A stretch of DNA of 64,000 nt from Flavobacteriales bacterium (lineage in GTDB: Bacteria > Bacteroidota > Bacteroidia > Flavobacteriales_F > PHOS-HE28): positions 1,933,796 to 1,997,795 of the forward strand of contig CP064979.1 of the NCBI GenBank assembly GCA_016699575.1. Reading direction: 5' to 3'. This document shows, one piece after another, positions 17,457 through 54,747 of this stretch; within the stretch, counting starts at the first letter, position 1; each line of letters opens with the position of its first letter. The notes under the pieces are model-generated. The model was not told where the DNA came from. It saw only the letters and a list, made by a program, of their open reading frames with translations, and searched no databases. Both the position numbers and the translations under genes were made by a program.

Positions 17457-17507
17457 GGGCGAGGCGGGGGCGGTTCGGCGTTCCGTGCTAGCTTGCCGCA
17501 ACCCACC

Positions 17508-21262: not shown

Positions 21263-21265
21263 CCT

Positions 21266-23822: not shown

Positions 23823-23837
23823 CGAGCCGCACCGCCC

Positions 23838-25601
23838 ATGAACACGCGCGATGGGCGTTGGTTCTTCCTGCTCTGTGCCATCGTTCTGTGTTACGTCATC
23901 GCACGAGCAGTACTAGTGCCGTTCGTGCACGATGAGGCGGCTACGTACAGTATGTACGTCCAAGTGGGGGAGTTCCTGCCGTGGCGATCACATTGGGATG
24001 CCGGCAACCACTTTTTGAGCACGGGGCTGGGCATTGTCGCGGATCGTGCGTTCGGCATGCACCAATGGGCGTTGCGAGGGGCGAGCGTCCTGGCGTTCGT
24101 GCTCTACGCTTTCGGTGCTTGGCGCATCGGAGGCATGGTGGGTGACAGGCTTGTGCGATGGTGCATGTGGTGCGGACTGTTGCTCTGCCCGTTCGTTCTG
24201 GAGTTCTTCTCCTTGTTCCGTGGCTATGGCTTGGCTGTGGCCTTCATGCTCGTTGGGTTGGATGGTCTGCTCCGATTGGTCCGGGATGGCGCTGTTCGGC
24301 ATGCCGCCCAAGCGTTGCTCGGGTTTGCGTTGGCGAACGCGTGCATCCTGTCGTTGCTAACGCTTTGGTTCGTGGTGTTGGTCGTTGTGGGCTGGCTGCT
24401 CTTGACCACTGCACGGACAACGAAACAGCGCGCTTGGCGGATCCTGCTTTGGATGATGATCGGGGTGGCGCCGTTCCTGTTCGCGCTGCGTGTGAGCAGG
24501 GAAATGCAGGCCGTGGGATTGTTCTATTACGGAAGCCTGGACGGGTTCATGGACGTTACCCTCCGCACGTTGTGCAACTACGTTCTAGGTTCGGGGAGTG
24601 CGTGGGTGATGCTGATGGTCATCATCGCGTTGTCGTGCTGTACAGCAGTGGCGGCCCATCGTTGGTGGAACAGAGGAACCTGGCGGCAACCGATCGTGGT
24701 GTGTACCAGCCTGCTATGGGCGGATGTCCTTTCCCGGGTGGTCATGGCTGTGCTTATCAGCGTGAACTACCCCGAGGACAGGGCCGCGTTGCACATGGTC
24801 CCGTTGTTCGTACTCACCCTTGCGCTCACGGCGGATGCGCTTGCTGCTCGCTCAGGGGCGATGCGTTATGCGGCGCTGGTCTTGTTGTACTTGCCGCTGC
24901 GCACCATTGTCACCGCCAACACCACCCACACATCGCTCTGGCCCGATGAGTCGGTGCCAGCAAGGTTCGTTGCGCGCATGGCCGATCTGCAGAGGCAACA
25001 AGGGCGCCCGCTCGTGACCGGGGCTTATCGGCAGATGAACCGAAGCCTGCCCTTCGCGGCGGTGCAACAAGGTGTTCAATTACCCATGCCGCTCACGGAG
25101 GGCTTCCCGACCGGCCCCCACGATGTGCGCGTTTCAAGGCCCGACCACCTGACAGCGGCCAGCATCGGATACAAGGAACTGGACCATGACCAGGGAACCG
25201 GACTGACCCTGTTGCAACGCGAACGACCGCTGCAGTTCATCTCTTCCCCGAGCATCCCATGGCCATCCCGGAACACGACGGACGAGTTCATCGGCGTTCT
25301 TGATAGTGACACGCTCAGCAGCGGGTCCGACCATCTGGTGGAATTCTCAGGCCGTCTGAGCACCAACGGGCCTGCACAGGTGAAGTTGGTGGTGGAAGTC
25401 AGGAACGCGGCCGACAGTGTTTTGTACTACGACGCGATCATGGTCACGGCCTTTGCGCCATTGGAGCACTCGTTCACCGAAGTGCGCCACGTTCCCCACC
25501 TCCACCCGGAACAGCGGGCGGTGATCTACTTCTGGAACATGCGTACGGCCGCTCTCCGGATCGACGACAGTGTGGTGCGTGTTCATGTGGTCCTGCCGTA
25601 G
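23838..25601 (+). CDS. GT-C-like (PMT_2/ArnT-like) polytopic membrane protein, paralog 1, with ~200-aa C-terminal soluble domain
   Basis: 587 aa. After TM1 comes the loop motif VPFVHDEAATY. It shares NHFL, WALRG and PFVLEFFSLFRGYGLAVAFML blocks with 26303-27715 and 35737-37196. Confidence 0.55.
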   Translation: MNTRDGRWFFLLCAIVLCYVIARAVLVPFVHDEAATYSMYVQVGEFLPWRSHWDAGNHFLSTGLGIVADRAFGMHQWALRGASVLAFVLYAFGAWRIGGMVGDRLVRWCMWCGLLLCPFVLEFFSLFRGYGLAVAFMLVGLDGLLRLVRDGAVRHAAQALLGFALANACILSLLTLWFVVLVVVGWLLLTTARTTKQRAWRILLWMMIGVAPFLFALRVSREMQAVGLFYYGSLDGFMDVTLRTLCNYVLGSGSAWVMLMVIIALSCCTAVAAHRWWNRGTWRQPIVVCTSLLWADVLSRVVMAVLISVNYPEDRAALHMVPLFVLTLALTADALAARSGAMRYAALVLLYLPLRTIVTANTTHTSLWPDESVPARFVARMADLQRQQGRPLVTGAYRQMNRSLPFAAVQQGVQLPMPLTEGFPTGPHDVRVSRPDHLTAASIGYKELDHDQGTGLTLLQRERPLQFISSPSIPWPSRNTTDEFIGVLDSDTLSSGSDHLVEFSGRLSTNGPAQVKLVVEVRNAADSVLYYDAIMVTAFAPLEHSFTEVRHVPHLHPEQRAVIYFWNMRTAALRIDDSVVRVHVVLP

Positions 25602-25631
25602 CATCTTAGCTGCCCTCAACACCGGTGCACC

Positions 25632-26288
25632 ATGCCCCTTGATAAGAACCAAATGGCCAGGCGCATCGCGCGCGAACTGAAGGACGGCTACTACGTGAAC
25701 CTCGGCATCGGCATACCCACGCTCGTGGCCAACTACGTTCCCGAAGGCATCAACGTGGCCTTCCAGAGCGAGAACGGGATCCTGGGCATGGGCCCCTTCC
25801 CGTTCGAGGGCGATGAAGACGCGGACCTCATCAACGCGGGCAAACAGACCGTGACACTGCTGGACGGTGCGGCGATCTTCGATAGTGCGACCAGCTTCGC
25901 CATGATCCGCGGGCAGCATGTGCAGCTCACCGTGCTCGGGGCCATGGAGGTCACGGACAGCGGTGACATCGCCAATTGGAAGATCCCCGGCAAAATGGTG
26001 AAGGGCATGGGCGGTGCCATGGACCTGGTGGCCAGCGCCGAGAACATCATCGTCGTGATGATGCACACGAACAAGGCTGGTGAGAGCAAGCTCCTCAAGC
26101 AATGCACACTGCCGCTCACCGGCGTGAAGTGCGTGAAGAAGGTGGTGACCGATCTCGGCGTGTTCGACATCACACCGGAAGGGTTCAAGTTGCTTGAGCG
26201 TGCGCCCGGTGTTTCCGTCGAAGAGATCAAGTCCAAAACAGAGGGCCGCGTGGTGGTGGAGGGCGACGTGCCGGAAATGGTGGTCTGA
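25632..26288 (+). CDS. scoB: 3-oxoacid/acetate CoA-transferase subunit B
   Basis: FQSENGILGMGP contains the catalytic-Glu SENG motif. 218 aa. Confidence 0.9.
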   Translation: MPLDKNQMARRIARELKDGYYVNLGIGIPTLVANYVPEGINVAFQSENGILGMGPFPFEGDEDADLINAGKQTVTLLDGAAIFDSATSFAMIRGQHVQLTVLGAMEVTDSGDIANWKIPGKMVKGMGGAMDLVASAENIIVVMMHTNKAGESKLLKQCTLPLTGVKCVKKVVTDLGVFDITPEGFKLLERAPGVSVEEIKSKTEGRVVVEGDVPEMVV

Positions 26289-26302
26289 TCACTTCGGGGG
26301 CG

Positions 26303-27715
26303 ATGAACGACCGGTCCATCGCGCACATCCTGCCGCTGCTCGTCATCGGGGCGCTCGTGTTCGCCTACGTCATGGCACGGGCAGTTCTTGTGTCCTTCAC
26401 TTGGGACGAGAGCTGGACGTTCATGCACCATGTTCTGCCGGGTGAGCTCTATCCGGCGCAACACGATATGATGAGCGGCAACCACCACCTATTGAACGTG
26501 TGGGGCATGTGGGCATGTGCCAAGTTGTTCGGGCAAAGTGAATGGGCGCTGCGGATACCGAACCTCACGGCGCTGGTGGTGTATGTCCTTGCTGCTGGGC
26601 GCATTGCCCTTCGTGCCGGACACATGGCCCGGTCCGTTGTCGGCTTCGTGCTGCTCGTTGCGCATCCGTATCTCCTTGAATTCTTCGGACTGGCGCGCGG
26701 ATACGGACTTTCCATCGGCTTCATGCTGATGAGCGTGTGGCACTTGGTGCGATGGAGCGAACAACCCGAACAACGTCGTCATGGCATGCTCATGTTCCTG
26801 TGTGCAGGGCTGTCCGTGCTCTCGCACTACGTCATGCTCAACTTCTTCATGGCCGTCGCGGTCGTTTTCGCGGTACGGATGGCGAGGATGCACTCCGGGA
26901 CGGTGAGTTGGCGGTTCGTGCGCTGGCCGTTGCTCATCAGCGCGGTGCTACTAGCGGTCATCGCCCCGCAAGTGCTGGGGATCCTCCGGGGTGGTGGGCT
27001 CATTTGGGGCTGTGGGGATCTCTGGTCGTGCTCCGTTCGTGGTCTCCTGTTGCGGCTGGCCGGGATGGACCTCGACACGGCGCTCATCGGCCCGTTGGTG
27101 CTGCTGGGCGCAGTGTTCCTGTTGGAAGCATCTCTTCAACGATGGGATGAACAGCATCGCGCTACAGCCACGGTGGCCGCGGTAACCCTGCTCTGTGCAG
27201 CGTTCGTTGCCATGGAGCATTTCCTCTTCGGAATGGAATGGCCGCGCACGCGAACAGCGCTTTACCTCTTCCCGCTGTTGATGACGGTAGTGGTGTTGTG
27301 GCTGCAGGCGAATGCCATCAGCTGGCCATGGTTGTGGTGGCCCGTGGTGCTCGCGGCGGGCGTGTTCACGATCAATACAACGCACCGGGCCAACCTTACG
27401 CATGCATCGGAGTGGCCCGAAGCCGCCGAGGTGGCGCGCATGATGGAACTGATCCAGAGCGACCGCGCCCAACATGGCTCACCCCGTCGGGCCACGCTGT
27501 CCTCGGGCCCTATTGCCTGGGGAAGTCTCGGCTACTACTTCCATCGACTGCACATCTCGGATATCGACACGGTCCGATGCTGGCCTAACGAAGCCCATCA
27601 GCCGGGCGACTACTACATCGTGGAGCCGCACGGACAACCGTTCGACACGACCGCAACCGAGCTGATGTTCCGCTCGGCGTCCAAGGTCGAACTGTACAGG
27701 AGTCGCGAGCGGTAG
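26303..27715 (+). CDS. GT-C-like (PMT_2/ArnT-like) polytopic membrane protein, paralog 2
   Basis: 470 aa. Blocks VSFTWDESWTF, NHHLLN, EWALRIPNL and PYLLEFFGLARGYGLSIGFML align with paralogs 1 and 3. Confidence 0.55.
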   Translation: MNDRSIAHILPLLVIGALVFAYVMARAVLVSFTWDESWTFMHHVLPGELYPAQHDMMSGNHHLLNVWGMWACAKLFGQSEWALRIPNLTALVVYVLAAGRIALRAGHMARSVVGFVLLVAHPYLLEFFGLARGYGLSIGFMLMSVWHLVRWSEQPEQRRHGMLMFLCAGLSVLSHYVMLNFFMAVAVVFAVRMARMHSGTVSWRFVRWPLLISAVLLAVIAPQVLGILRGGGLIWGCGDLWSCSVRGLLLRLAGMDLDTALIGPLVLLGAVFLLEASLQRWDEQHRATATVAAVTLLCAAFVAMEHFLFGMEWPRTRTALYLFPLLMTVVVLWLQANAISWPWLWWPVVLAAGVFTINTTHRANLTHASEWPEAAEVARMMELIQSDRAQHGSPRRATLSSGPIAWGSLGYYFHRLHISDIDTVRCWPNEAHQPGDYYIVEPHGQPFDTTATELMFRSASKVELYRSRER

Positions 27716-27752
27716 TCCATACCGATCGGCCGCGGGATACTTTCGGCCGCCC

Positions 27753-28472
27753 ATGCCGATCACCAAGCTCAGCATCCTCATCCCCGCCTACAACGAGGAG
27801 CGCACCATCCATCTGATCCTCGACAAGGTCCGTGACGTGCAGCTGATGAACGGGATCGCCAAGGAGGTGGTGATCGTGAACGATGGCAGCATGGACGGCA
27901 CGGTGGCGGCCGTGAAGCGTTACATGGCCACGAACCCCGGCCTCGACATCCGCTTGTTCGAGCAACCGAGGAACATGGGCAAGGGTGCTGCGATCCACAA
28001 GTGCATTGAGCTGGCGACCGGGGAGTACATGATCGTGCAGGATGCCGACCTGGAGTATGACCCCCGCGAATACAACGACCTGTTGCGTCCGGTCGTGGAA
28101 GGCTTTGCCGATGTGGTGTTCGGTTCGCGTTTCATGGGCCACCACCCGCACCGCATCCTGTTCTTCTGGCACAGCATCGGCAACAAGTTCCTCACCTCGT
28201 TGAGCAACGCGTTCAACAACCTCAACCTCACCGACATGGAGACGTGCTACAAGCTCATGCGCAGCGACGTTGCGAAGGGATTGAAGCTGCGGGAGAGGCG
28301 GTTCGGCTTCGAGCCCGAAGTGACGGCCAAACTGGCTCGCGTACAAGGGATCAGGTTGTACGAGGTGGGCATCAGCTATTACGGGCGCACCTATGCTGAA
28401 GGAAAGAAGATCGGTTGGAAGGACGGTTTCCGGGCCATCTGGTGCATTGTGCGCTATGGTCTGGCGGATTGA
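27753..28472 (+). CDS. GT2 glycosyltransferase, Dpm1/GtrB/ArnC-like (putative polyprenyl-phosphate sugar synthase)
   Basis: LSILIPAYNEE...VIVNDGSMDGT...NMGKGAA...IVQDADLEYDP are GT-A fold DxD blocks. 239 aa with no TM tail. Confidence 0.8.
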   Translation: MPITKLSILIPAYNEERTIHLILDKVRDVQLMNGIAKEVVIVNDGSMDGTVAAVKRYMATNPGLDIRLFEQPRNMGKGAAIHKCIELATGEYMIVQDADLEYDPREYNDLLRPVVEGFADVVFGSRFMGHHPHRILFFWHSIGNKFLTSLSNAFNNLNLTDMETCYKLMRSDVAKGLKLRERRFGFEPEVTAKLARVQGIRLYEVGISYYGRTYAEGKKIGWKDGFRAIWCIVRYGLAD

Positions 28473-28490
28473 GGCAAAGTCACACGGATT

Positions 28491-30377
28491 ATGTTCGTCG
28501 GCATGTCACGCCCGCGCAACGAGGGACCGGTCACGCTCGCGTTCGCGCTGGCGGGGGCGGCCTTCCTGGTCCGTTTGCTCAGCGAAGGAGTTCCGGATAG
28601 TGGTGACGGTGTTGCCCATTACCAGATCGCGCGGTACGCGTGGAAGCACCCGTTGATGCTGTTCGACGCATGGGGCAAGCCGCTGTACACGCTGCTGGCT
28701 TCTCCCTTCGCCCAATGGGGTCTTTGGGGACCGGCGCTGATGAACGCCTTGTTGGCCGCGGCCACTGGTGTGCTCATCATCGGACAGGTCGCACGCGTGC
28801 AACGGGCTTGGTGCTGGGCTGTTCCGGTGATGCTTTTCGCAGCGCCCCAATATGCGCACACGGTGATGGCCGGACTTACCGAGCCGCTCTTTGCTTTCCT
28901 GGTGGTGTGGGCCGTAGTGTGCGCGTTGCGCGATCGCTGGGCCTGGGCGTTGGGTATTGTGTCGTTCGTGCCCTTCGCCCGGCCGGAACACATAGCAGTG
29001 CTTCCCATGATCCTGCTGGTGGCAGCATGGCAACGTGAATGGCGCGCATTGCCATGGGTCTTGTTGGGAACAGTGTTCCACGGTGTGTTCGGCTTCGTAA
29101 TGACAGGTGACCCCTTCGTGGCGTTCGGCGGGAACCCTTACGCGGGCGTCACTACGTACGGCACCGGACCGGCCACGCACTTCATTGGGCGGATGCCGCA
29201 CTACTATGGATGGCCGATCATTGTTTGCGCCTCGTTCGCGTTGGTCGCATGGCCCTATGTGTGGCGAAGGGATGGCGCGCAACGTGAGCAGCACCTGATG
29301 GTCTTGTTGCTCGCGTTCGTTCCGGCGGTGCTCATACTTGGCCTGCACAGCTACGCTTGGTGGAAGGGCGGCCACGGCTCCCTGGGCCTCGACCGGGTAA
29401 TGGCCACATGCCTGCCGCTGCTCGTGTTGTTCACTGTGCATGTGCTCGCCTTGCTTTGGAAGCGTTTCCCGATGAATGCTGCCATGCGACCGGTCTTCAC
29501 TCTGCTCGTTGGTGCATTCGCCTTGTTCGCCTATCCGCATGTGGTGGACGAACTTCTGCTTCCCTACAAGCCGGACATGGTGCAGACAACCTTGCGAAAG
29601 GCTGCGGAGAAGGTGAAGGAGATCAAGGAGGAGGGAGAGCGGGTGTATTGCATGACCCCGTTAGTAGGCGCATTGCTCGATCTGGATCCCAGGGATGAGC
29701 GCGAGGCGCAACTGCTCTATGAGCCGGCCTCGATCGCGGCGGGGTCGGGCATTCGACCAGGAGACATCGTTGTCTGGGACGCCCATCACGCGCGCATGGA
29801 TGCGCGAATACCGCTTGATACGCTGATGCAAAGTGATCGCTTCAGTTTATTGACCGTGGTGAAACCCGAGGTACCGACCCTGGTTCTCGGCGAGGTGCCG
29901 TTCGAAGTGTACCTCTTTCAACGACGCTCCGTTCAGCGCGCCGCCATTGTGGACACCTTGTTCGGTCTATCCGTTGAACCCGCAGCGCAAGCGCCTGCAC
30001 AAGTGGATACGGTAGGTGGAGCGACCAAGGGCACGTGGGTGCTCAGTGCACTGGAATTCCCGCTCACCTGGGAGGGACTGCCGCTGGGCAACGGTACCAA
30101 CGCGGTCATGGAAAAGCTCGTGGTGACCGGAAACGTGGATGGCCGCTACGGAAAGGATTCGCTGGACCTGGTGTTCACCGAAGAGGAAACGGGCGAACAG
30201 GTCCGTTACGCAAGCGCGCCGCTGCGCGGAGGAGAATTCAAGGTGGAGTGGGACATCGGTGATGGAGCGCGGAAGCGGGCGAACAAGTTGTACGTGTGGA
30301 ACAGGAGCGGGCGGGAAGTACGGATCACAAGCTGGACCGTGACCCGGAGCCAGTGGATGCAACACGAGGTTCCATGA
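28491..30377 (+). CDS. Large polytopic membrane protein (possible GT-C) with C-terminal soluble beta-rich domain
   Basis: 628 aa. The acidic loop DSGDGVAHYQIARYAW follows TM1. About 10 hydrophobic segments are followed by a ~270-aa hydrophilic C-terminal region. Confidence 0.45.
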   Translation: MFVGMSRPRNEGPVTLAFALAGAAFLVRLLSEGVPDSGDGVAHYQIARYAWKHPLMLFDAWGKPLYTLLASPFAQWGLWGPALMNALLAAATGVLIIGQVARVQRAWCWAVPVMLFAAPQYAHTVMAGLTEPLFAFLVVWAVVCALRDRWAWALGIVSFVPFARPEHIAVLPMILLVAAWQREWRALPWVLLGTVFHGVFGFVMTGDPFVAFGGNPYAGVTTYGTGPATHFIGRMPHYYGWPIIVCASFALVAWPYVWRRDGAQREQHLMVLLLAFVPAVLILGLHSYAWWKGGHGSLGLDRVMATCLPLLVLFTVHVLALLWKRFPMNAAMRPVFTLLVGAFALFAYPHVVDELLLPYKPDMVQTTLRKAAEKVKEIKEEGERVYCMTPLVGALLDLDPRDEREAQLLYEPASIAAGSGIRPGDIVVWDAHHARMDARIPLDTLMQSDRFSLLTVVKPEVPTLVLGEVPFEVYLFQRRSVQRAAIVDTLFGLSVEPAAQAPAQVDTVGGATKGTWVLSALEFPLTWEGLPLGNGTNAVMEKLVVTGNVDGRYGKDSLDLVFTEEETGEQVRYASAPLRGGEFKVEWDIGDGARKRANKLYVWNRSGREVRITSWTVTRSQWMQHEVP

Positions 30378-31840
30378 GCAGGCCCTCGGGTTTCCTGTTG
30401 GCCGCATTGGTTTTCGTGGTCCTGTTCGGGGGGTGTGGTGGTACGGAACCCTCACACTCGTTCGTGGGCTTGGACAAGAACGGGTTCGTTGCCGGTGGAG
30501 AGAGGTTTTTCCCGAAGGCAGTGAACTACATCGCTTGCTTGCGCACGGACGGCAAGGAGGTGTGGATGGCTCCGAGCACGAGCTATGCTTCACATGTACC
30601 CGGTCGCATGGACCTTGCGGCTGATAGTCTCCAACTGCGCGCTGATCTGCAGTTGATCAGGGATATGGGCTTCAACACGGTGCGTGTGGTGGGCTTCGCG
30701 GAGCAGGCCTTCGACAGTGCCGCGATCATGCTTCGTGCACGCGACCGGTCGGACTCCTTGGTGTGGTTGTCCATTGAAGATGAGCAAGGAAGAGAGAAGT
30801 ACTTGGGCGCGCTCACGACATTGATCGGCGCCGTTCGTGCTGCTGGGCTCAGGTGCATTCTGCTCACGCAGGTGCGGCCCTATACCCCGGCCACCGAGCA
30901 CCACTTTGCTCTTGTCGCCGACCACTTCGTCAACGACACCGTCATCCTGGCTTACGACCTCTTCAATGAGCCGCTGTACTTCGATCGTCCTGAGCGGCCC
31001 AAGGAGGAGGCTTGGGCGATCCTGCAACGATGGCGGGCGCTGTTCGATGAGCACGCGCCGAACCACTTGTACACGCTGGGGCTCACTGGTATCCGCGAGA
31101 CGTTCGAGTTCGATCCGAACATGCTCACGGTCGATTTCATCAGCTACCACCCGTACGAGTACGAGCCCGATCAGGTGCGAAATGAACTCCGTTGGTACGC
31201 CAACAATGTGGATGTGCCTTGGATCATAGGTGAGACCGCCATTCCCGCGGACAACGATTCCGTGCCGTACGCCGACCAGGAGGAATTCGCGCGCAAGACA
31301 CTGTTGCAGAGCCGCGCTTGCGGTGCCATCGGATACAGTTGGTGGCAATTCCAGGACGTGAAATGGGGGCGGTTCCATGCCGACTACATGGGCGTGCTGA
31401 ACCGCGAAGGGGTTTCAGTGACTTCCGTCGGTGATACTGTGTTCGGAACCAGGAAGCCGGTGGCGGGCGCGCTCAAAGGGTTCGATCCCTGGACCGGTGC
31501 TGGCGAGTGCCTGTGCTTGCCGAACTACCTCAACTATTCCGATGGCCGTGTAAGCAAAGTCTCGGGCCGCTTGGTGGATGAGCACGGTGTACCGATCAAC
31601 GAAGGGACCGTCATTGCCTGGAACGAGGTCTGGAACGAGAGCTACCACACCACCTCTGGGTCGGATGGCCGTTTCGAACTGCGCGCGCCGATCTGGCTGC
31701 ACCACTGGATGGCCAGCGCATCACGCTACAGCATGGACCGCGGCGATTGCGACCCGAACGCCATGGTGCGCAGCGCGGATGGTGTGCCGGGCTACGAGCT
31801 TGGCGACATCCGGCTGGATCGTCTGGACTTCGTACCGTGA
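30374..31840 (+). CDS. GH5-like (clan GH-A) glycoside hydrolase lipoprotein with CarboxypepD_reg-like C-terminal domain
   Basis: ATG 30374 overlaps the upstream TGA as ATGA. The lipobox is VLFGGCGG. Catalytic-type blocks are DLFNEP (acid/base), ISYHPYEY and WIIGET (nucleophile). The C-terminus has VSGRLVDEHGVPINEGTVIAWN...GSDGRFEL. Confidence 0.6.
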   Translation: MSRPSGFLLAALVFVVLFGGCGGTEPSHSFVGLDKNGFVAGGERFFPKAVNYIACLRTDGKEVWMAPSTSYASHVPGRMDLAADSLQLRADLQLIRDMGFNTVRVVGFAEQAFDSAAIMLRARDRSDSLVWLSIEDEQGREKYLGALTTLIGAVRAAGLRCILLTQVRPYTPATEHHFALVADHFVNDTVILAYDLFNEPLYFDRPERPKEEAWAILQRWRALFDEHAPNHLYTLGLTGIRETFEFDPNMLTVDFISYHPYEYEPDQVRNELRWYANNVDVPWIIGETAIPADNDSVPYADQEEFARKTLLQSRACGAIGYSWWQFQDVKWGRFHADYMGVLNREGVSVTSVGDTVFGTRKPVAGALKGFDPWTGAGECLCLPNYLNYSDGRVSKVSGRLVDEHGVPINEGTVIAWNEVWNESYHTTSGSDGRFELRAPIWLHHWMASASRYSMDRGDCDPNAMVRSADGVPGYELGDIRLDRLDFVP

Positions 31841-33856
31841 TCAACGCGTTCGGAAGAGCGCCAGCCCCTCCGGCTTTGCGGCGCGAGCGTAGAGGCGCAG
31901 GTCTGCTGTGTCCAGCTCCAGGTAAAGCCCGTTGTCGGCGCGAAGGGCCATCGATCCATCGCCGAGATCGTTCCAAAGGAACATGCCCATATCACCCAGG
32001 CGGGCACTCGTTGCCACGAGACCACTGTCCTTGTGCAGCTGAACGCTCATGAAGGCATCGTTGTGCGCCACCAAGGCCACACGACCGTTGGCCAAGCGAA
32101 GCCTCACCAGCGTTTCCCATTGCATCGCCGTGTCGCGGCTGGCGAGCACGCGGGGATCTTGCTGAAGATCCACACAGACCCAATGACCGTTGGCGGCGCG
32201 CAATTGCAACGTGTCGGTGAGGAGGACGCGTTGATGAGCATTGTTGACGATGGTGATCTCGTCGGTCGTGGTTTGGTTGAAGGCACACCACTCCGCCAGG
32301 CTTCGCGGTGTTTGTAGGTCCCAGAACCGCATATGGTTGCCCGGATAATGGCCTGTGTAGGCGTTCACCACGGGAATGCCCAGTTCCTGGCCCGCCAACA
32401 TGGCCGTGAGGTGGATGGCGATGCTCCGCTCGTGGTCCTCCCGGAAGGGTTGCATTCCTCTTACGGGGGTATAGGCGATAGCGGAAGTGGGGCTGTCGGC
32501 CATCAAATGCATGTCCAGGGCCGCGCGTTCCACCATCTCCCGTGCGGCGTGTTTGTTGTACTGCTTCAGCTCAGCGACGTTCACCTTGTTGTCAAGCACC
32601 GTCGAAACGCACAAGAGAACACCTAGCACCGCACCGGTCAAAGGCTTCACCTTCACGTGTGCGGCCACGACCGCCACAAGAGCAGCGAAGTACACGGCCA
32701 GCACGGGCACGAACCGATCGATGGCGCGCAAGGCGCTGAAGCCCGGCAGCCCGGCGATCAGTTTGTAAAGCGAGAGATCGCCCATGCGCAGACAGAAGAG
32801 CAGGGACAACCCAAGCGCGACGATGAGCGCAGCAACCGGCTTCCGGTCGTTGCCGCGCAATGCCAGGACCACAGCCGCGATGACCGCAGCCCAAGCCACA
32901 GCACCCATGAAATGAAAATGGCTCCACCAGTCGGGGAATGCATCCTTGGAGTGGGAGGAGAGGCTCTGCCAATTCACGGCAGCTGGATGCGTGAAGAACC
33001 AGCTCGAGGGTCGCGGGATGGTGTTGGCGATGTGCTCGTAACCACGCACACCGGTGACCTTGCTGATCGCCAGGTACGGCGTCATCAGCGGCAGCATCGC
33101 CAGCCCTCCAGCAACAAGAACAAGGAGCGACCGCCACACGGTGCGCGGGGACCACGACCATAGTGCGCTTAGTCCGCGCCAATGCACAAGCTGATGACCG
33201 ATGACCAAGAAGAACATCACATAGCACAGTATGAACCCGAGATAGATGCCACAATAGAACTGGAACACTATGGCGCCTGTGGTAAGCGCCAAGTGCACGG
33301 GCTTGCCGGTCCGCAACCATTGCCAACACCACCAGAACGCCAGTGGCACCATGAACCGGGGGAACATCTGCGCGTGGTCCATGTGCCCGATGAAATGGAT
33401 GCCGAACGCGAACACGTACGCGCCGCATGCTGCCGGAACGACGCGTTTCGTCCATGCCCACAGCGCTGCGAAGCAGCAGAGGAAGTTCAATGCGAACATG
33501 GCAAGTATCCAGAGCTGGTAAGACGACTCCCGATTGAAGCCCAGGCCCCGGAACAGCGAATACACCGGCGCGCTTCCCAGCAGATTGTCGCTGAAAGCGA
33601 TGACGTTCTTGTACGGATACATGAAGGGCGCGTCCCAATACGATGGCGTGCGACCCGTCACGTACTGGTGGAAGTGCTCGAGAATGTAGTTGTTGAAGCG
33701 GGAGTCGCCCAGATCACCGGGCAGCAGTTCGCGCCCCGGCCCCATCACCGCCAGCGGAAACGAGTACATGCCCACACCGAACAGGACCATGGCCAAGGCC
33801 AAGCCCGGCAAATGGGGCAGGGCTCCTCTGGTCCACTTCATCACGCAGGTGCGCAT
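31841..33856 (-). CDS. Large polytopic membrane protein with C-terminal three-fold repeat (beta-trefoil/fascin-like) domain
   Basis: 671 aa. The loop GDLGDSRFNNYILEH follows TM1, with many TM segments. The last ~130 aa show three repeats of the type L-R-A-x-N-G-x-aromatic/aliphatic (ANGHWVCVD, ANGRVALVA, ADNGLYLEL). Confidence 0.45.
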   Translation of the reverse strand: MRTCVMKWTRGALPHLPGLALAMVLFGVGMYSFPLAVMGPGRELLPGDLGDSRFNNYILEHFHQYVTGRTPSYWDAPFMYPYKNVIAFSDNLLGSAPVYSLFRGLGFNRESSYQLWILAMFALNFLCCFAALWAWTKRVVPAACGAYVFAFGIHFIGHMDHAQMFPRFMVPLAFWWCWQWLRTGKPVHLALTTGAIVFQFYCGIYLGFILCYVMFFLVIGHQLVHWRGLSALWSWSPRTVWRSLLVLVAGGLAMLPLMTPYLAISKVTGVRGYEHIANTIPRPSSWFFTHPAAVNWQSLSSHSKDAFPDWWSHFHFMGAVAWAAVIAAVVLALRGNDRKPVAALIVALGLSLLFCLRMGDLSLYKLIAGLPGFSALRAIDRFVPVLAVYFAALVAVVAAHVKVKPLTGAVLGVLLCVSTVLDNKVNVAELKQYNKHAAREMVERAALDMHLMADSPTSAIAYTPVRGMQPFREDHERSIAIHLTAMLAGQELGIPVVNAYTGHYPGNHMRFWDLQTPRSLAEWCAFNQTTTDEITIVNNAHQRVLLTDTLQLRAANGHWVCVDLQQDPRVLASRDTAMQWETLVRLRLANGRVALVAHNDAFMSVQLHKDSGLVATSARLGDMGMFLWNDLGDGSMALRADNGLYLELDTADLRLYARAAKPEGLALFRTR

Positions 33857-33913
33857 TTTTCAATCCATTGAACAGCAAGCAAGATTAAGTGCGGACCGCT
33901 CTATCATTGTTCG

Positions 33914-35704
33914 ATGCGCACCATCAACTTCCGCGAGCCGCTTTTCGTAGCGGGTTGTGCGCTTCTGGGCTTTCTGGTCCTCATGGCGTGCGTGTTCTAT
34001 GTGGAGCGCACCACAGGCTTCGACAGCGCATGGCAGAGTTTCCAGATGCTCTTGGAGCGCTTCCCACGTTGCGAGCACAGGCGTTATTCCACCATGATCA
34101 CCCAACTGGTCCCGACGCTGGTGCTGTGGTGCAAAGGCTCATTGCAAAGTGTCCTGTTCGCGTACTCCGCATCGCTCATCGCCGTGCACTTGTTGGTCTT
34201 CGCGGTCATCGCGATCAGGCTTCGTGACGGGTCTGCCGCGCTGGCGGTACCGCTTGCGCTGGTGGTGATGGTGGGGGGCTCTTTCTACTTCGGCGTAAGT
34301 GAGGTGCAGCAAGGCATCACTGCACCGTTGCTTGCGTGGGCATTGGGCAGAAAGGCACTGGCCGCGCCGAGAGCGGATCTTGTTCGGGCCTGGGGATCGG
34401 GTGCTGTGGTGGCAGCTGTATGGGCAACGCTCTACCATGTCGTTTACGCGTTGCCTGTGGTCTATGTCCTGGGCTTGGAGATCATCGGGCGCAAGGGTTG
34501 GCTTCGGTTACGGTACTGGCTTTTGCCCCTGTCCATGGTCTGCGCCATTGCATTGTGCCGACTGTTCGTGGGCATGTCCGATTATGAACGCGAGCGCATG
34601 GTGGACCCCGGGGAGTTCACCCAGTTCGCATCCGACTTGTCCGTGCTTCCGAGTGCGCAATACCTGCTCGACGCGTTGCCGCGCTTCCCGGCGATGTTGG
34701 GCCTGATGGGCGTATGCGCCATTGTTGCACTGCTCAGGTTGCGCTGGCTATCACTGTTATGGACGGGGGGGTGGACAACGTTGACGGTACTGTTGATCCT
34801 CATCACCGACCGCGCGACCTACTCGCCCTACATGTACGAGAACCTCTACCCGCTGTTGGGCATCGCGTGGGCGGCTTTTGCGGCTGATCTCACTGTAGGA
34901 CTTGTGCGTGGGCGTGCCGTGATGACCGCCGCGTTGGTTGTCGTCATGGTCCTTGGTGCTTGGCAGGTTTGGCGAGGAAGGGTCACCTATGTGGACAAAG
35001 TGCAGTACGCCGAGCGGATCACCACTGACCTTCGGGGCCAAGGAGTGCGAAAGGCGATCGTGTCCGCGCACCTCATTCCATGGGGATATGCCCAGACCCA
35101 TTGGACATTGCCGTTCGAGACACTGCTGGTCTCATCGATGATGGCTCCTGACAGCGCAGTAACCGTTTTCGCCGAAGAGCCGATGGACAAGGCCAAACCG
35201 TGCATGGATGACGAGACCCGGTTGCTGGGCCCCGCGTGGAACATCTGCGCGTTCGGGCTCGCCCAGCTCGACACGGCGCTTTTTCAATTGCCCGGCGGTC
35301 CGTATCGCATTGTGAGCCAGTTGCCGGACAGCGCTTTCCGGCCGCAGGGAACCGTTCGTGTTGCTCCATTGACCGCGGAGTTCACCATGCGCTCGGGTGA
35401 CTACGACCTGTTGCCGGTGGAAGTATGCTGGGAAGGTGAGGTGCCCTTGTACGCTTTGGGCACCAAGGCCTTGACCACGATCCATTACGAGATGCGCAAC
35501 CGGTGGAGCGGATGGGTTGAAGCCACCGGCTGGACGTCGTTGGAAATGGACCTGGCCCCAGGCGCCTGCTGTGCACTCCCGCTCAAGGTGGACCGTCCGG
35601 CACGTGCGGGTGAGCATCATTTGTACCTGCAGCTCAAGGTGAACGAGGAAACACTTGCCACGGCCGGTCCGGTGACCATCCGCGTCCACTCGTTCGGCAT
35701 TTGA
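33914..35704 (+). CDS. Polytopic membrane protein of unknown family with C-terminal soluble domain
   Basis: 596 aa. It is divergently transcribed from 31841-33856 with a 57-bp spacer. About 10 hydrophobic segments are followed by a ~230-aa hydrophilic region. Confidence 0.45.
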   Translation: MRTINFREPLFVAGCALLGFLVLMACVFYVERTTGFDSAWQSFQMLLERFPRCEHRRYSTMITQLVPTLVLWCKGSLQSVLFAYSASLIAVHLLVFAVIAIRLRDGSAALAVPLALVVMVGGSFYFGVSEVQQGITAPLLAWALGRKALAAPRADLVRAWGSGAVVAAVWATLYHVVYALPVVYVLGLEIIGRKGWLRLRYWLLPLSMVCAIALCRLFVGMSDYERERMVDPGEFTQFASDLSVLPSAQYLLDALPRFPAMLGLMGVCAIVALLRLRWLSLLWTGGWTTLTVLLILITDRATYSPYMYENLYPLLGIAWAAFAADLTVGLVRGRAVMTAALVVVMVLGAWQVWRGRVTYVDKVQYAERITTDLRGQGVRKAIVSAHLIPWGYAQTHWTLPFETLLVSSMMAPDSAVTVFAEEPMDKAKPCMDDETRLLGPAWNICAFGLAQLDTALFQLPGGPYRIVSQLPDSAFRPQGTVRVAPLTAEFTMRSGDYDLLPVEVCWEGEVPLYALGTKALTTIHYEMRNRWSGWVEATGWTSLEMDLAPGACCALPLKVDRPARAGEHHLYLQLKVNEETLATAGPVTIRVHSFGI

Positions 35705-35736
35705 GGACTGGTCCGGCGGTGGCCAGCGCTTCTCGC

Positions 35737-37196
35737 TTAGAGCGACGGTATCGCAGAGGGACTCGCGCGCTTGAGCAGCACCACATCACTTATGTCGAAG
35801 ATGGCCAGTACCACGAACCCCTCATCATAGCCCGGCTTTTCGACCCAGCGCACGACCATGCGATACTCATCGTCCGGTGCGAAGCCATCACGGTCAGCCC
35901 GCTCAAGCCAGCCCAGCCCCCGGGAGCGCGCGTAATAGTTCATGGTGGGCTCCAGCAGCCATGTATTGCCGATACGCACGGTGCGACCTTCGTTACCGCC
36001 CGCTCGATGGTCCGCAGGTCGTAGGCCCATTCCACGCTATGGTCGGGGCCAAAGTGGTCCGGGAAGCGCAGTGCGCACCAGGCCGCGCAGGAAGCAAGAA
36101 CACAAAGAGCAAACCACTTGCCCGGGGAGCCCCTGAGCAATGACAGTTGCAATGGCAACAACAACACCAACGACGGCTCCAGGAACATGGCGAAACGACC
36201 CGCCATGCGGTCCACACCGAGGAGCAAGTGCTGCAGTTCGGCCCCGATGCACGTTGCGATAAGGGTGGTACCGAGAACGAGCAGTGCACTGTGCTTCCGC
36301 AGGAAGGCCGTGTTCCGCAGGATGGCGTGCCGAACCAGGACGAAAGCCGGGATGAGCACCACCGCCGAGATGAGCACCTGCATCGCCAGCATCAGTCCTG
36401 TCCCCACCCCGATCCCGGGCAAGAAGCTCCGCGCCCATGTGCCAACCGTATCGGCAAAGAGCCCGCCCTTGCCACCGAAATCGAAGGCATTGTTCTCCAT
36501 TACCTGGAGCACCGGCTTGCGCAGGACAAGGAAGGCTGCGACAAGCATGGCAAAGCCTTGCACGTACGCACGACGGCTTCGCCGCCCGCCTTCACCAAGG
36601 CCCATGAAAAGAGGCGCTACGTAATACAAACAGAGCCCGGCCACGTATGCCGTGAGCAACGTGAAATTGCTCAATGCCGCAAGCACGGATGCAATATGGA
36701 ACAACCCAAGATGTTTCATCCCCGGCCCCGTGATCGCACGCGCCAAATGGTATTGTGCCATGAGGAAGAAGCCGAACGAGAGCCCGTAACCACGCGCCAG
36801 CGTGAACAGCTCGATCAGGTAGGGGTTCGCACAGAGCAAAAGCAACCCGCCAATGGCCAGCGGCGGCCAAAGCGGTCTCAGGATCCGGATCGCGTACACC
36901 AGCCAGAGCGCAAGCGCGGCCAGGTTGGGAAGCCGCAACGAAAGTTCCGAGTCACCGAACCACTGCCAGGCGTATTTCATGCCCAGTGTGTTGAGCAGAT
37001 GGTTGTTGGTGTAGGCGTGCTTGTGCAGTACGATGTCGGAGAAGGAGGCTTCCGGGTAATGCAGGTACGTAAAGCTCTCGTCATGGCTGAACGAGGTCAC
37101 GGCAGCACGGTGGACCGCCAAGCCAAGAACCGCCAGGCTTATCGCGATGAGCGCGATGGTCAGCCATAGAGGCGCACGTGACGTTGCTTCGTTCAA
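35737..37196 (-). pseudogene. GT-C-like paralog 3, interrupted by a single-nucleotide frameshift near 35995-36005
   Basis: Frame A (35940-37196, TTG start overlapping the exonuclease stop as TTGA) carries TSFSHDESFTY, NHLLN, LSLRLPNL and PYLIELFTLARGYGLSFGFFL. It ends in ...TIERAVTKVAPCVSAIHGCWSPP*. Frame B (35737-36030) continues GGNEGRTVRIGNTWLLEPTMNYYARSRG...DDEYRMVV..., which aligns with the C-terminal domain of paralog 2 (RRATLSSGPIAWGSLGYYFHRLH...GDYYIVEP). Confidence 0.6.
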
Positions 37197-37906
37197 AGCA
37201 CGGTGATGTTCTCCGCAGCGATCAACGGCTGTCCCTTCAATCTCAAATAGACCTGCACAGTGGCCACCACATCCTTCTTACAGTAGGCGGCGATCCGTTC
37301 CAGGTCCTTCTCCTCGTAGTACACACGCGCCACATCGCTACCCTTAATGTCACCCTTCGGTGATGGGATGCCGAGCACATGCGTGAGCAGCTCCAGCGAG
37401 GTGTAATGTTTGCGGTCACCGAATTTCCACAGCTCAAGTGTGTCTTCGTGCTGTACTTCCCAGGGCTTTTTGCCCGACAGGTCGAGGATCGGGGGGAGGG
37501 GAATGCTATTGATCACGCACCGCCGTGCGATGTACGGGAAGTCGAACTCCTTGCCGTTGTGGCCGCACAGACGGTGATCGGCCGTGTGGAAGCGCTCGTT
37601 GAGCAACGCCACGAACTCTTCAAGGATGTCGCGCTCGTGATCGCCGTGGATGGTCTTCACGCGCAGCTTGCGGTCCTTGCTGCCTGCAGTGAGGAAGCCC
37701 ACACCGATGCAGATGATCTTGCCGAATTCGCTCAGGATGCCGCCACGGTCGCGGAACATGTCCTCTTCGCTTTTGCCATCGCGTTCGCGTTCGTAGCGGG
37801 TCTTCTCGCTGAACAGTTGCTGTTCGCGCTCATCCATGTCGGACCAGCGCTGCACGTGCGGCACCGTTTCAATGTCTAGGAAAAGGATCTTGCTCAGGTC
37901 GGCCAT
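37193..37906 (-). CDS. 3'-5' exonuclease, PolB-exonuclease-like (RNase H-like fold)
   Basis: MADLSKILFLDIETVP (ExoI DxE) ...LCGHNGKEFDFPYI (ExoII). ATG 37906 is preferred to the TTG at 37918. Confidence 0.7.
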   Translation of the reverse strand: MADLSKILFLDIETVPHVQRWSDMDEREQQLFSEKTRYERERDGKSEEDMFRDRGGILSEFGKIICIGVGFLTAGSKDRKLRVKTIHGDHERDILEEFVALLNERFHTADHRLCGHNGKEFDFPYIARRCVINSIPLPPILDLSGKKPWEVQHEDTLELWKFGDRKHYTSLELLTHVLGIPSPKGDIKGSDVARVYYEEKDLERIAAYCKKDVVATVQVYLRLKGQPLIAAENITVL

Positions 37907-37976
37907 GTCAAGCTTCAAGTCTCAAGGCCCAAGCTACAAGCTTCAACAAGACGGGCAGGAACCTGTGGCGAGACAA

Positions 37977-46385: not shown

Positions 46386-47682
<1,297 letters not shown>

Positions 47683-54401: not shown

Positions 54402-54733
54402 CCATCTGGCTCGATGCCCAGCTCTCGCCGGTCCTGGCCAATTGGATCCGCGCAACATTCAACGAGACCTGCTTCCCGATCCGCGACCTTGGTGAGCTGA
54501 ACATGGCCGATGAGACTTTGTTCCTGCGGGCCAAGAAGGAAGCGGACTTGTTGATCACCAAGGATGTGGACTTGGTTCATCTGCTGCACCGCCATGGACC
54601 ACCGCCAAAGGTTGTGTGGCTGCGGATGGGCAACACGAGCAATGCGCGTCTGAAGCAAGTATTCACCCAGCGTTGGAGCGACATCATGGCATTGACCGGG
54701 GCGAACGAACCCTTGGTAGAACTGGTTGATTGA
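54398..54733 (+). CDS. DUF5615-family PIN-like protein (putative toxin)
   Basis: GTG 54398 overlaps the upstream TGA as GTGA. The MTIWLDAQLSP...DETLFLRAKKEADLLITKDVD layout is typical of DUF5615/Mut7-C-like partners of DUF433. Confidence 0.65.
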   Translation: MTIWLDAQLSPVLANWIRATFNETCFPIRDLGELNMADETLFLRAKKEADLLITKDVDLVHLLHRHGPPPKVVWLRMGNTSNARLKQVFTQRWSDIMALTGANEPLVELVD

Positions 54734-54747
54734 GCACCGGCCGACAC

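Follow-up and report, generated by a model that had tools for sequence, protein, structure and literature searches.

The closest described counterparts of the locus analysed here are the three-component periplasmic glycosylation systems, represented by GtrA/GtrB/Gtr* of Shigella and Salmonella and by the GT136 pentofuranose systems (PMC11127046). As in our locus, a GT2 synthase is encoded beside a GT-C enzyme acting extracytoplasmically, with GT-C partners that vary and evolve fast. The locus differs, however, in lacking a flippase gene, in having a synthase without TM helices, and in encoding six predicted GT-C proteins, from four sequence families, where those systems have one; it also adds a GH5 hydrolase and lectin-like domains, and does not lie in an O-antigen locus or prophage. 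The PPM-dependent LM/LAM pathways of mycobacteria and corynebacteria (Ppm1 with PimE, MptA, MptB, and MptC; PMC3485146) are similar in that one synthase with a soluble catalytic domain feeds several GT-C enzymes, and PimE, AftB, and a weak GT87 signal in M628 are among the matches of the locus proteins. Yet these pathways belong to another phylum, the GT87 match of M628 (18 bits) falls below the cut-off of 25, the locus lacks a PIM-type anchor pathway, and its enzymes are clustered and variable, whereas those of LM/LAM synthesis are dispersed and conserved. Protein O-mannosylation by Ppm1/Pmt (GT39; Actinobacteria and eukaryotic PMTs) shares the PMT_2-type N-terminal module, the D-E pair directly after TM1, and a Dpm1-like donor synthase, but the locus proteins are much shorter, have different C-terminal domains, and lack MIR domains and PF02366 matches. 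Finally, the ArnC/ArnT system for aminoarabinose modification of lipid A (GT83) resembles the locus in the best structural E-values, the ArnC-like GT2, and the PMT_2 family assignment, but differs from it by its sugar-modifying Arn genes, whereas the locus has multiple transferases, lectin domains, and a GH5. Our literature search found no description of this cluster. We consider it fairly likely to be a donor-centred periplasmic glycosylation island that depends on a lipid-phosphate-sugar, with the GT-C genes encoding modular transferases that share one donor.

Gene content and order

The window, a 64,000-nt stretch of a Flavobacteriales genome, contains ten ORFs at 23124-37196, and all sizes, motifs, and small gaps claimed for them in the original prediction are present:

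scoA, 23124-23822, + strand: 3-oxoacid CoA-transferase subunit A
M587, 23838-25601, + strand: 587 aa, predicted DE-motif GT-C paralog of family A1
scoB, 25632-26288, + strand: 3-oxoacid CoA-transferase subunit B
M470, 26303-27715, + strand: 470 aa, predicted DE-motif GT-C protein, PMT_2-like
GT2, 27753-28472, + strand: 239 aa, predicted polyprenyl-phosphate hexose synthase
M628, 28491-30377, + strand: 628 aa, GT-C-like membrane protein of family A4
GH5 lipoprotein, 30374-31840, + strand: Pfam Cellulase, with a C-terminal CarboxypepD_reg-like beta-sandwich
M671, 31841-33856, - strand: 671 aa, polytopic membrane protein of family A2
M596, 33914-35704, + strand: 596 aa, membrane protein of family A3 with a modelled GT-C fold
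M418, 35738-37196, - strand: third predicted DE-motif GT-C paralog, frameshifted (ORF 35940-37196, 418 aa)

The coordinates confirm the tight packing of the seven co-directional genes, with gaps of 15, 30, 14, 37, and 18 nt and one ATGA overlap (30374-30377) at the M628/GH5 junction. This layout is real, but two of the seven genes, which had been counted as members of a glycan locus, encode subunits A and B of a 3-oxoacid CoA-transferase: scoA matches Pfam CoA_trans (259 bits) and TIGR02429 (281.5 bits), and scoB matches TIGR02428 (330.9 bits, cut-off 243.55). With 82-96% identity in related loci, scoA is probably not a glycan gene but a conserved anchor that runs in the same direction as the cluster. 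Co-transcription of the cluster with scoA and scoB would have no glycan rationale, which counts against the donor-centred reading. M587 sits between these two genes.

Domain searches of the locus and its flanks found no Wzx, Wzy, phosphoglycosyl transferase, nucleotide-sugar, or ABC-exporter domains, in agreement with the list of absent genes given previously. That list held up but did not include the flippase: neither the locus nor the window contains a gene of the GtrA, SMR, or MATE type. Genes for anchor synthesis or priming are likewise missing from the cluster.

The GH5 lipoprotein, whose NEP and GET blocks and coupling to the 628-aa protein had been noted earlier, matches Pfam Cellulase with 31 bits (cut-off 23.5), and its start codon overlap with M628 indicates translational coupling. 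FNEP (E199) and GET (E287; IGET in the locus protein) are invariant in seven homologs, and the N-terminus is of the lipoprotein type (LFGGC). This gene is present in only seven of the loci examined.

Predicted donor synthase and membrane proteins

GT2 is predicted to be a polyprenyl-phosphate hexose synthase of the Dpm1/GtrB/ArnC type, a likeness that was proposed from the sequence and is supported by its matches to Pfam Glycos_transf_2 (105 bits), by AglJ, PgfS, and PpgS as best NCBIfam matches, and by PDB matches including 6yv7, PfDPMS 5mlz (residues 5-220), GtrB 5ekp, and ArnC. The DADLEYDP block is present, but TM prediction found no TM helix, unlike in GtrB, ArnC, and PfDPMS. While GT2 does lie in the locus, it is not specific to it: the protein is conserved throughout the phylum (67-86% identity across Bacteroidota), which had been missed. 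Since several lineages, e.g. Mucilaginibacter, encode GT2 without a neighbouring GT-C gene, it may serve a function unrelated to these genes.

Three of the membrane proteins, M587, M470, and M418, are true paralogs, as claimed from their shared blocks (blastp E-values of 4e-24 for M470-M587, 9e-31 for M470-M418, and 2e-9 for M587-M418). The blocks can be read in the translations, as ARAVLVPFVHDEAATY / ARAVLVSFTWDESWTF / HRAAVTSFSHDESFTY and as PFVLEFFSLFRGYGL / PYLLEFFGLARGYGL / PYLIELFTLARGYGL. M587 matches the family A1 HMM (E 1e-119), carries VPFVHDEAATY directly after TM1, and ends in a 250-aa extracytoplasmic domain. In M470, 11 TM helices are accompanied by a small alpha/beta domain at the C-terminus. 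The protein matches Pfam PMT_2 (33.2 bits, cut-off 26.1), as do 52 of 81 A1 family members, and TMEM260-like families. In its AF2 model (pLDDT 92.2, pTM 0.92) and in the family alignment, the D-E pair is located directly after TM1 as predicted; D35/E36 are near-invariant and R132, G133, Y134, and R317 invariant in the DE-motif family. The positive-inside tally of M470 is weak (13 vs. 10). The top 24 Foldseek matches of this model in the PDB are all GT-C enzymes, comprising ArnT, ALG12 (TM-score 0.58), ALG9, STT3/AglB/PglB, AftB, PimE, and Pmt4.

The third paralog is not the single reading frame of about 486 aa that was described, but a frameshifted gene. Its ORF, which ends at 35940 after 418 aa, encodes the TM module in intact form; the conserved C-terminal part is read in a different frame, whose stop lies at 35738. 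The full span is 1459 nt and thus cannot be divided by 3. Compared with the intact ortholog in L001, an indel follows SVEWAYDLRT, with a length not divisible by three and estimated at ~25-28 nt.

The PMT_2 and TMEM260-like matches of M470, the PMT-like position of the D-E pair, and Pmt4 among the structural matches could also point to protein O-glycosylation, in which these enzymes would move a sugar directly from the lipid-phosphate donor onto Ser/Thr residues in proteins of the periplasm or membrane, in the manner of actinobacterial Ppm1/Pmt, and might feed the general O-glycosylation of Bacteroidota, initiated by a core hexose. GT2 is conserved throughout the phylum, as is the O-glycosylation system. 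According to reviews (PMC12871550; PMC8729774), the reducing-end sugar of that system is a hexose (mannose), and its OTase, core flippase, and core GTs have yet to be discovered. In the accepted model, however, the O-glycan is assembled on Und-PP in the cytoplasm (PMC12871550). Moreover, all 87 matches of the DE-motif family come from Flavobacteriales-type MAGs and are not phylum-wide, domain searches yielded neither PF02366 nor MIR, the associated GH5 and CBM-like domains suggest a polysaccharide, and many GT2 loci have no adjacent GT-C gene, so that we consider this explanation unlikely.

M596 lacks a Pfam family, but 836 representative clusters match it, and R32, D37, R57, and S85 are invariant in family A3. 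Its positive-inside counts (10 vs. 4) favour an N-in topology. The AF2 model (pLDDT 95.8) matches ArnT 5ezm (E 3e-4, 490 columns), STT3, and EmbA/B, and its C-terminal domain is a CBM-like beta-sandwich matching the Wzt carbohydrate-binding domain and a porphyran CBM. Among membrane folds, the models of M470 and M596 match exclusively GT-C enzymes (ArnT, ALG9/12, STT3, Pmt) with moderate TM-scores of 0.34-0.58; the models thus show a GT-C fold for both, with predicted glycosyltransferase activity. For M628 and M671, a relationship to the DE family is suggested by profile comparison, with hhalign alignments that span the C-terminal half only: family A4 (M628) matches A1 with 93.6% probability (E 2e-7) and family A2 (M671) with 91.5% (E 9e-7), compared to 1-6% for four other family pairs that served as an internal control. 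The profile searches and AlphaFold modelling proposed earlier as checks were supportive: of the GT-C folds predicted for all six proteins, those of the DE family and M596 are shown by models, and those of M628 and M671 are suggested by profiles.

M628, with a large C-terminal domain, gives a sub-threshold signal for Pfam GT87 (18.2 bits) and matches the AZOBR_p60025 family with 35.5 bits, and D39, H43, E131, R164, and E166 are invariant in its family. M671, which has 349 homologs in Bacteroidota, carries a conserved PGDLGD..RFNN..EH block after TM1, and conserved acidic residues just after TM1 occur in every GT-C family. Its C-terminus is a fascin/CBM92-like beta-trefoil that matches CpCBM92 (7zoh, E 6e-15). 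CBM92 proteins have a WETF consensus at WExF sites (PMC11039641); M671 retains a WExF-like QWETL but has lost two of the three sites, and its carbohydrate binding is putative. Its trefoil is joined to a polytopic membrane protein, unlike CBM92, which is attached to a secreted glycoside hydrolase.

A further explanation is decoration of lipid A or the LPS core, with an ArnC-like GT2 and ArnT-like GT-C enzymes whose sugars would alter charge or resistance. ArnT is the best E-value match of both modelled proteins, and ArnC is among the PDB matches of GT2. PMT_2 is a Pfam family that covers ArnT-like enzymes. Still, the best TM-scores of M470 are to ALG12 and ALG9 and not to ArnT, the locus contains no ArnA-, ArnB-, or ArnD-type modified-sugar genes, six transferases far exceed the need, and the lectin-like domains and GH5 would be left unexplained, which makes this reading distinctly improbable.

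Conservation and proposed mechanism

Counterparts of the cluster occur in many Flavobacteriales and in other Bacteroidia, and the predicted clustering extends to related and distant genomes. The same gene set is found in L001 (73-85% identity) and variant clusters in L004/5, L086, and L087; L001 and L087 both retain the order GT2-M628-GH5, and L086 adds GH16, Acyl_transf_3, and MBOAT genes. M628 adjoins GT2 in 13 loci, its family being the commonest GT-C family directly downstream. In 43 of 80 species-level loci, a protein of at least 400 aa with at least six TM helices is encoded within 3 kb of GT2, and the density of large polytopic proteins across these 80 species is about four times higher near GT2 (1.56 per 10 kb) than at 5-10 kb (0.37 per 10 kb). 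The observations that the original prediction named as counting against it, i.e. absence of a GT-C fold, assignment to unrelated transporters, a cytoplasmic DE motif, or scattered genes, were not encountered.

This enrichment and the recurrence of the GT2, GT-C, GH5 order in distant genomes argue against the genes being neighbours by descent that have no common function, with a housekeeping GT2 and independent membrane proteins that are partly decaying GT-C relics. The residues at catalytic positions are invariant or near-invariant in all families, suggesting purifying selection on activity. In favour of this reading are the position of scoA and scoB, genes without relation to glycans, among those of the cluster, the frameshift in one paralog, and the several lineages in which GT2 stands alone, but we regard it as very improbable.

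In the donor-centred island that we favour, GT2 would charge undecaprenyl phosphate from a nucleotide sugar at the cytoplasmic face of the inner membrane, probably with a hexose, and a flippase encoded outside the locus would bring the lipid-phosphate-sugar across the membrane. Up to six GT-C-fold transferases, i.e. the three PMT_2-like DE-motif paralogs, M628, M671, and M596, each with its own extracytoplasmic C-terminal domain, may then use this one donor to add or extend envelope-glycan sugars. In at least two of them, lectin-like C-terminal domains (the CBM92/fascin trefoil of M671 and the Wzt-like sandwich of M596) could bind the acceptor, which favours a carbohydrate over lipid A or a bare protein, and the GH5 lipoprotein may trim, release, or remodel the product. 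The island thus probably builds or decorates a putative envelope glycan outside the cytoplasm.

Alternatively, the six GT-C proteins may form a single LM/LAM-like assembly line, working one after another on the same acceptor anchored to a lipid or to the membrane. The product would be one homo- or heteropolymer, for example a lipoglycan of the mannan or beta-glucan type or a glucan in the periplasm, with GH5 as chain-length or release enzyme. We consider this possible but doubtful. Tight co-directional packing with translational coupling, the identical gene set in L001, lectin-like domains suited to polymer acceptors, and GH5 with the GH16, Acyl_transf_3, and MBOAT genes of L086, which are typical of polysaccharide modification, are consistent with it, as is the weak match of M628 to GT87, the family of mycobacterial PPM-dependent mannosyltransferases. 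However, a fixed line is difficult to reconcile with the scarcity of GH5, the lack of anchor-synthesis or priming genes, and a frameshift in one paralog while the rest of the cluster is kept, and above all with a GT-C number and family composition that varies widely around the same anchors. GT2, scoA, and scoB are 82-87% identical between genomes whose GT-C genes share 28-38%, and the conserved anchors enclose 0 to 7 GT-C genes, with family swaps at one position and lineage-specific bursts of paralogs. Strong conservation of GT2 and its flanking genes beside a variable, fast-evolving GT-C set therefore suggests modular diversifying transferases and not a fixed pathway, and the content of 0 to 7 genes is explained no less well by such a modular set than by a fixed assembly line.

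Gene content and layout of the locus

Ten closely packed genes lie at 23124-37196 of the window, and the first seven are all on the + strand. The six membrane proteins are named by their length in amino acids and belong to four families: A1 (the DE-motif family, with M587, M470, and M418), A2 (M671), A3 (M596), and A4 (M628).

Genes of the locus (window positions, strand, product)
23124-23822, +, scoA, 3-oxoacid CoA-transferase subunit (TIGR02429, 281 bits, above cut-off)
23838-25601, +, M587, DE-motif paralog of family A1
25632-26288, +, scoB, 3-oxoacid CoA-transferase subunit (TIGR02428, 331 bits, above cut-off)
26303-27715, +, M470, family A1, with a PMT_2 match
27753-28472, +, GT2, glycosyltransferase family 2 protein of 239 aa
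28491-30377, +, M628, family A4
30374-31840, +, GH5-type lipoprotein (PF00150)
31841-33856, -, M671, family A2
33914-35704, +, M596, family A3
35940-37196, -, M418, family A1, with a conserved C-terminal segment reaching 35738 in another frame

The sizes, motif blocks, and coordinates of the original prediction hold overall. The co-directional genes are spaced by 15, 30, 14, 37, and 18 nt, and the ATGA stop/start overlap of M628 and the GH5 gene at 30374-30377 was verified. Two gene claims had to be revised: the genes at 23124 and 25632, which had been counted as part of a glycan locus, encode the CoA-transferase subunits, and the reading frame of the supposed ~486 aa protein stops after 418 aa. 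In M418, a conserved C-terminal segment (GRTVRIGNTWLLEPT) is instead found in another frame, with its stop at 35738. Compared to the intact ortholog in a close relative (L001), M418 contains an indel (estimated ~25-28 nt) just after SVEWAYDLRT whose length is not a multiple of three. It shifts the last ~80 codons into the other frame (35738-36050, -) and spares the TM module, which carries the D-E pair. M418 is either a pseudogene or affected by an assembly error.

The absence of Wzx/Wzy, an initiating phosphoglycosyl transferase (PGT), nucleotide-sugar genes, and an ABC exporter, as originally predicted, was borne out in a scan of the 10 locus genes and 20 flanking genes, setting the locus apart from Wzx/Wzy- and ABC-dependent polysaccharide systems. 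Horizontal transfer of the locus was considered and rejected, because GC is flat across the region (0.60-0.62) and synteny with the housekeeping anchors is conserved. A sigma-70 and terminator scan was uninformative: it returned 0 promoters, although it does not cover Bacteroidota promoters, and terminator predictions occurred at chance rate.

Candidate GT-C families, donor synthase, and GH5 lipoprotein

The proposed paralogy of the three A1 proteins was confirmed by blastp (M470-M587, 4e-24; M470-M418, 9e-31; M587-M418, 2e-9). M470 matches the Pfam family PMT_2 (PF13231), an ArnT/GT83- and GT39-like N-terminal module, with 33.2 bits (threshold 26.1), and 52 of the 81 A1 members match it at E ≤ 0.01; M587 and M418 individually have no PMT_2 match. 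PDB searches with the single M470 sequence and with the A1 profile yielded nothing useful. An AlphaFold2 model of M470 built from the 81-sequence alignment (pLDDT 92.2, pTM 0.92) retrieved exclusively GT-C structures at ranks 1-24 of a Foldseek search against the PDB (probability 1.00, TM up to 0.58), among them ArnT, ALG12 (TM 0.58), ALG9, STT3/AglB/PglB, AftB, PimE, and Pmt4; hits to unrelated transporters and receptors start at rank 25, with probabilities of at most 0.2. D35 and E36, conserved in at least 90% of the A1 sequences, start the first loop helix in the model, directly after TM1 (helix 10-29), and R132, G133, Y134, and R317 are invariant. The modelled structure of M470 shows a GT-C fold that has a D-E pair after TM1, as had been claimed, and M587 and M418 count as GT-C proteins through their paralogy to M470. 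PF02366, MIR, and PMT_4TMC are absent from all six membrane proteins in Pfam searches, which places them outside GT39.

For M596, neither a Pfam nor an NCBIfam match was found, and 0 of 72 relatives have a Pfam family, despite A3 comprising 836 representative clusters at E ≤ 1e-3. The single sequence found nothing useful in the PDB. With the AlphaFold2 model of this protein (pLDDT 95.8), the best Foldseek match of the membrane domain is ArnT (E 3e-4, 490 columns), and STT3 and EmbA/B come next. The C-terminal beta-sandwich resembles carbohydrate-binding modules (CBMs), among them a porphyran CBM and the domain with which Wzt binds O-antigen. Within A3, R32, D37, R57, and S85 are invariant and E31 is shared by at least 90% of the sequences, with E31 and D37 located immediately past TM1. 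The model thereby shows a GT-C fold for M596. Profile comparisons of A3 with A1, A2, and A4 by hhalign were not significant, so the GT-C assignment of M596 comes from structure only.

M628 and M671 are connected to A1 by their profiles. In hhalign comparisons, A4 aligns to A1 with 93.6% probability (E 2e-7, 333 columns) and A2 to A1 with 91.5% (E 9e-7, 244 columns), compared to just 1-6% for the four other pairings of TM-rich profiles (A3-A1, A3-A2, A3-A4, and A4-A2), A4 against A2 being not significant. Membrane composition alone therefore cannot account for the two high scores, which suggest a relationship of both proteins to the GT-C-type family A1. M628 reaches 18.2 bits against GT87 (PF09594, threshold 25), with weak matches in only 3 of 11 orthologs, and it matches the domain of the NCBIfam [quoted passage not shown]. 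PDB searches with M628 and the TM part of M671 as single sequences, and with the A4 profile, gave nothing useful. The C-terminus of M671 is a fascin-like beta-trefoil, for which the A2 profile hits 7zoh and 7zoi, two structures of CBM92 (E 6e-15). CBM92 binds beta-glucans via WExF motifs (PMC11039641), of which it has three, versus a single WExF-like motif in M671 (QWETL; family consensus WETF).

All four families keep one or more acidic residues in the first loop past TM1; in A4, D39 is invariant after TM1, and in A2, E60 is invariant and at least 90% of the sequences have D48 and D51. A periplasmic orientation of this loop is suggested by a weak positive-inside signal, with a tally of 10 vs. 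4 favouring N-in for M596; a crude Kyte-Doolittle hydropathy analysis was not decisive for topology.

The soluble GT2 had been likened to Dpm1, GtrB, and ArnC. It matches PF00535 with 105 bits and contains the DADLEYDP block, and its closest PDB structures are the Pyrobaculum-type GT2 6yv7, the Pyrococcus DPMS 5mlz (PfDPMS, residues 5-220), GtrB, and ArnC. The top NCBIfam models, each below its equivalog cut-off, are the lipid-phosphate sugar synthases AglJ, PgfS, and PpgS. These matches support its membership in the polyprenyl-phosphate glycosyltransferases, in agreement with the original prediction. No TM segment is predicted in GT2, unlike GtrB, ArnC, and PfDPMS with their C-terminal TM anchor. 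TM-less polyprenyl-phosphate glycosyltransferases do exist, such as human DPM1 and the catalytic domain of mycobacterial Ppm1, and the lack of the anchor thus does not rule out synthase activity. Orthologs in databases are named merely “glycosyltransferase family 2 protein”, and a link to GtfF of P. gingivalis or to other A-LPS glycosyltransferases was not established.

The assignment of the lipoprotein to GH5 also stood: it passes PF00150 with 31 bits (threshold 23.5), the acid/base E199 of the FNEP motif and the nucleophile E287 of the GET motif are invariant in seven homologs from different genomes, and most homologs have a lipoprotein-type cysteine. A call on its specificity was rejected, because the family is too divergent: the single sequence found nothing useful in the PDB, and the profile retrieved only marginal endoglucanase, mannanase, and endoglycoceramidase fragments (E > 0.02).

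Together, these analyses support the original annotation of a locus acting in the periplasm, with GT-C proteins, a donor synthase of the Dpm1 type, and a GH5 protein. Two more specific roles are protein O-glycosylation and an ArnT-like decoration of lipid A. Both are less likely: for protein O-glycosylation, because the distribution of the DE family is restricted and PMT and MIR domains are absent, for lipid A decoration, because Arn genes are absent, and for both because of the GH5 protein and the CBM-like domains.

Conservation across Bacteroidota

The clustering expected in related genomes was found. The close relative L001 has the same ten-gene order, and in the more distant Flavobacteriales MAGs L004/L005, with ~30-36% identity in the GT-C genes, the order is scoA, two A1 genes, scoB, a PMT_2 gene, GT2, further genes beginning with an A1 member, a DUF6311 protein, A3, and, at the border, the same PolB-exo2-like exonuclease. 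The GT2-M628-GH5 order recurs in L001 and L087. On the distant Bacteroidia contig L086, GT2 is accompanied by GH5, GH16, Acyl_transf_3, and MBOAT genes, a member of A1, and four to five paralogs resembling M671. This last island (L086, 3277-21983) is expanded: its M671-like paralogs bear beta-trefoils, a separate 163-aa protein is a beta-trefoil on its own, and a Peptidase_S74 protein carries a T9SS tail.

In a survey with one genome per species, at least 598 loci encode GT2, and the best 80 of these were analysed. Their GT2 proteins are 67-86% identical and come from Flavobacteriales, Chitinophagales, Saprospiraceae, Sphingobacteriales (Mucilaginibacter), Cytophagales (Hymenobacter), and Bacteroidales (Prevotella). 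Members of A1-A4 were detected by HMM in 22 of the 80 loci, the M628 family adjoins GT2 in 13 loci, and in 43 of the 80, a protein with at least 6 TM segments and a length of 400 aa or more is centred within 3 kb of GT2. Across the 80 loci, large polytopic proteins occur at 1.56 per 10 kb near GT2 vs. 0.37 per 10 kb at a distance of 5-10 kb. Of ten such polytopic GT2 neighbours sampled from diverse lineages, seven lack any Pfam family and the other three match PMT_2 or PMT. Several Pfam-less polytopic GT2 neighbours in L013, L014, L020, L031, and L043 share the block W/F-D-x-x-G-Y-Y-x-Y-L-P-A-x-F just past TM1, which suggests another uncharacterised GT-C-like family tied to GT2. The 772-aa DUF6311 membrane protein of L004 (14925-17243, -), which takes the place of M671 on the same strand and has no A1-A4 HMM match, may represent a further one.

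The anchors and the genes between them differ markedly in conservation: in the same genome pairs, scoA, scoB, and GT2 are 82-87% identical vs. 28-38% for the GT-C genes, whose number between the anchors varies from 0 to ~7. Mucilaginibacter has 0 GT-C genes, and there the exonuclease gene abuts GT2. In the window, this PolB-exo2/RNase_H_2-type 3'-5' exonuclease gene (37193-37918, -) forms the downstream border of the cluster; it is also near GT2 in L004, L008, L009, L013, L025, L029, L032, L038, L049, L061, L066, L072, L073, L082, and L087. As the exonuclease is near GT2 even without GT-C genes, the two look like ancestral neighbours between which GT-C genes appear to have been inserted. On the other side, one to three GT-C genes lie between scoA and scoB, a split kept in at least 13 species-level loci (window 23124-26288, L001, L004/5, L008, L010-L012, L015-L017, L030, L032, and L073). 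In L016, an M671-family gene fills this slot, whereas in other loci scoA and scoB are side by side and followed by a GT-C gene.

Proposed function and relation to known systems

With anchors that are conserved and GT-C genes that vary and evolve fast, the locus is better explained by a modular repertoire of transferases that diversify while sharing one donor than by a fixed pathway. We infer that, on the cytoplasmic side, GT2 would load a sugar onto undecaprenyl phosphate, and that a flippase encoded outside the locus would expose this donor. The GT-C enzymes would then pass the sugar to an envelope glycan, with their lectin-like C-terminal domains gripping the carbohydrate acceptor, and the GH5 protein would trim or release the product. 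A single-polymer assembly line with LM/LAM-like logic, as originally proposed, is possible in this particular genome. Stable anchors around a changing set of GT-C genes look like surface-glycan diversification, which would bear on the phage and predator interactions of activated-sludge and aquatic Flavobacteriales.

The logic resembles that of Gtr-type three-component systems (PMC11127046), although the locus has a synthase and GT-C genes but no flippase gene (GtrA, SMR, or MATE-like), none being found in the locus or the window. It is also similar to PPM-dependent lipoglycan synthesis (PMC3485146), but fails GT87 membership. With neither GT87 nor GT39 assignments and a synthase without a TM anchor, the locus belongs to neither system.

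Much work in Proteobacteria, Firmicutes, and Actinobacteria has dealt with extracytoplasmic glycosylation that relies on GT-C enzymes and lipid-phosphate sugars; for Bacteroidota, the literature searched contains almost nothing on it and no description of this cluster (DUF6311, AZOBR_p60025, GT-C in Bacteroidota). In databases, proteins of the locus go under the names “hypothetical protein”, “glycosyltransferase family 39 protein”, or “glycosyltransferase family 2 protein”, and three of the four families (A2, A3, and A4) have no Pfam model above threshold. The locus ties at least four GT-C-like sequence families to one highly conserved gene for a predicted, phylum-wide donor synthase. It deserves attention because this single, well-defined genetic target offers a handle on several large unannotated GT-C families of Bacteroidota. 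In Bacteroidota O-glycosylation, the oligosaccharyltransferase, core flippase, and ligase are still missing (PMC12871550; PMC8729774), and the locus may have a bearing on these enzymes, a link of low probability. It is an improbable scenario that the TM-less GT2 supplies a lipid-phosphate-hexose donor for an unrecognised extracytoplasmic glycosylation layer in Bacteroidota, with the neighbouring dark GT-C families (A1-A4 and others that lack Pfam models) including the missing periplasmic O-glycosylation enzymes, for reducing-end hexose attachment or as the core-to-outer-glycan ligase, or else making a new LM/LAM-like lipoglycan.

Several genes around the locus are worth recording. Upstream, at 17493-23089, the genes for a DUF2339 membrane protein (843 aa) and a DUF3999 protein overlap, and a gene for a protein with a PKD domain comes next; the three are conserved ahead of the cluster in L001. 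Downstream, an Abi_2 (abortive-infection-like) gene at 46482-47510 lies between those for phosphoglycerate kinase and a DAO oxidoreductase, and at 54730-59539, two GH29 alpha-L-fucosidase genes on opposite strands, adjoining an MFS transporter gene, form a small fucoside-utilisation unit.
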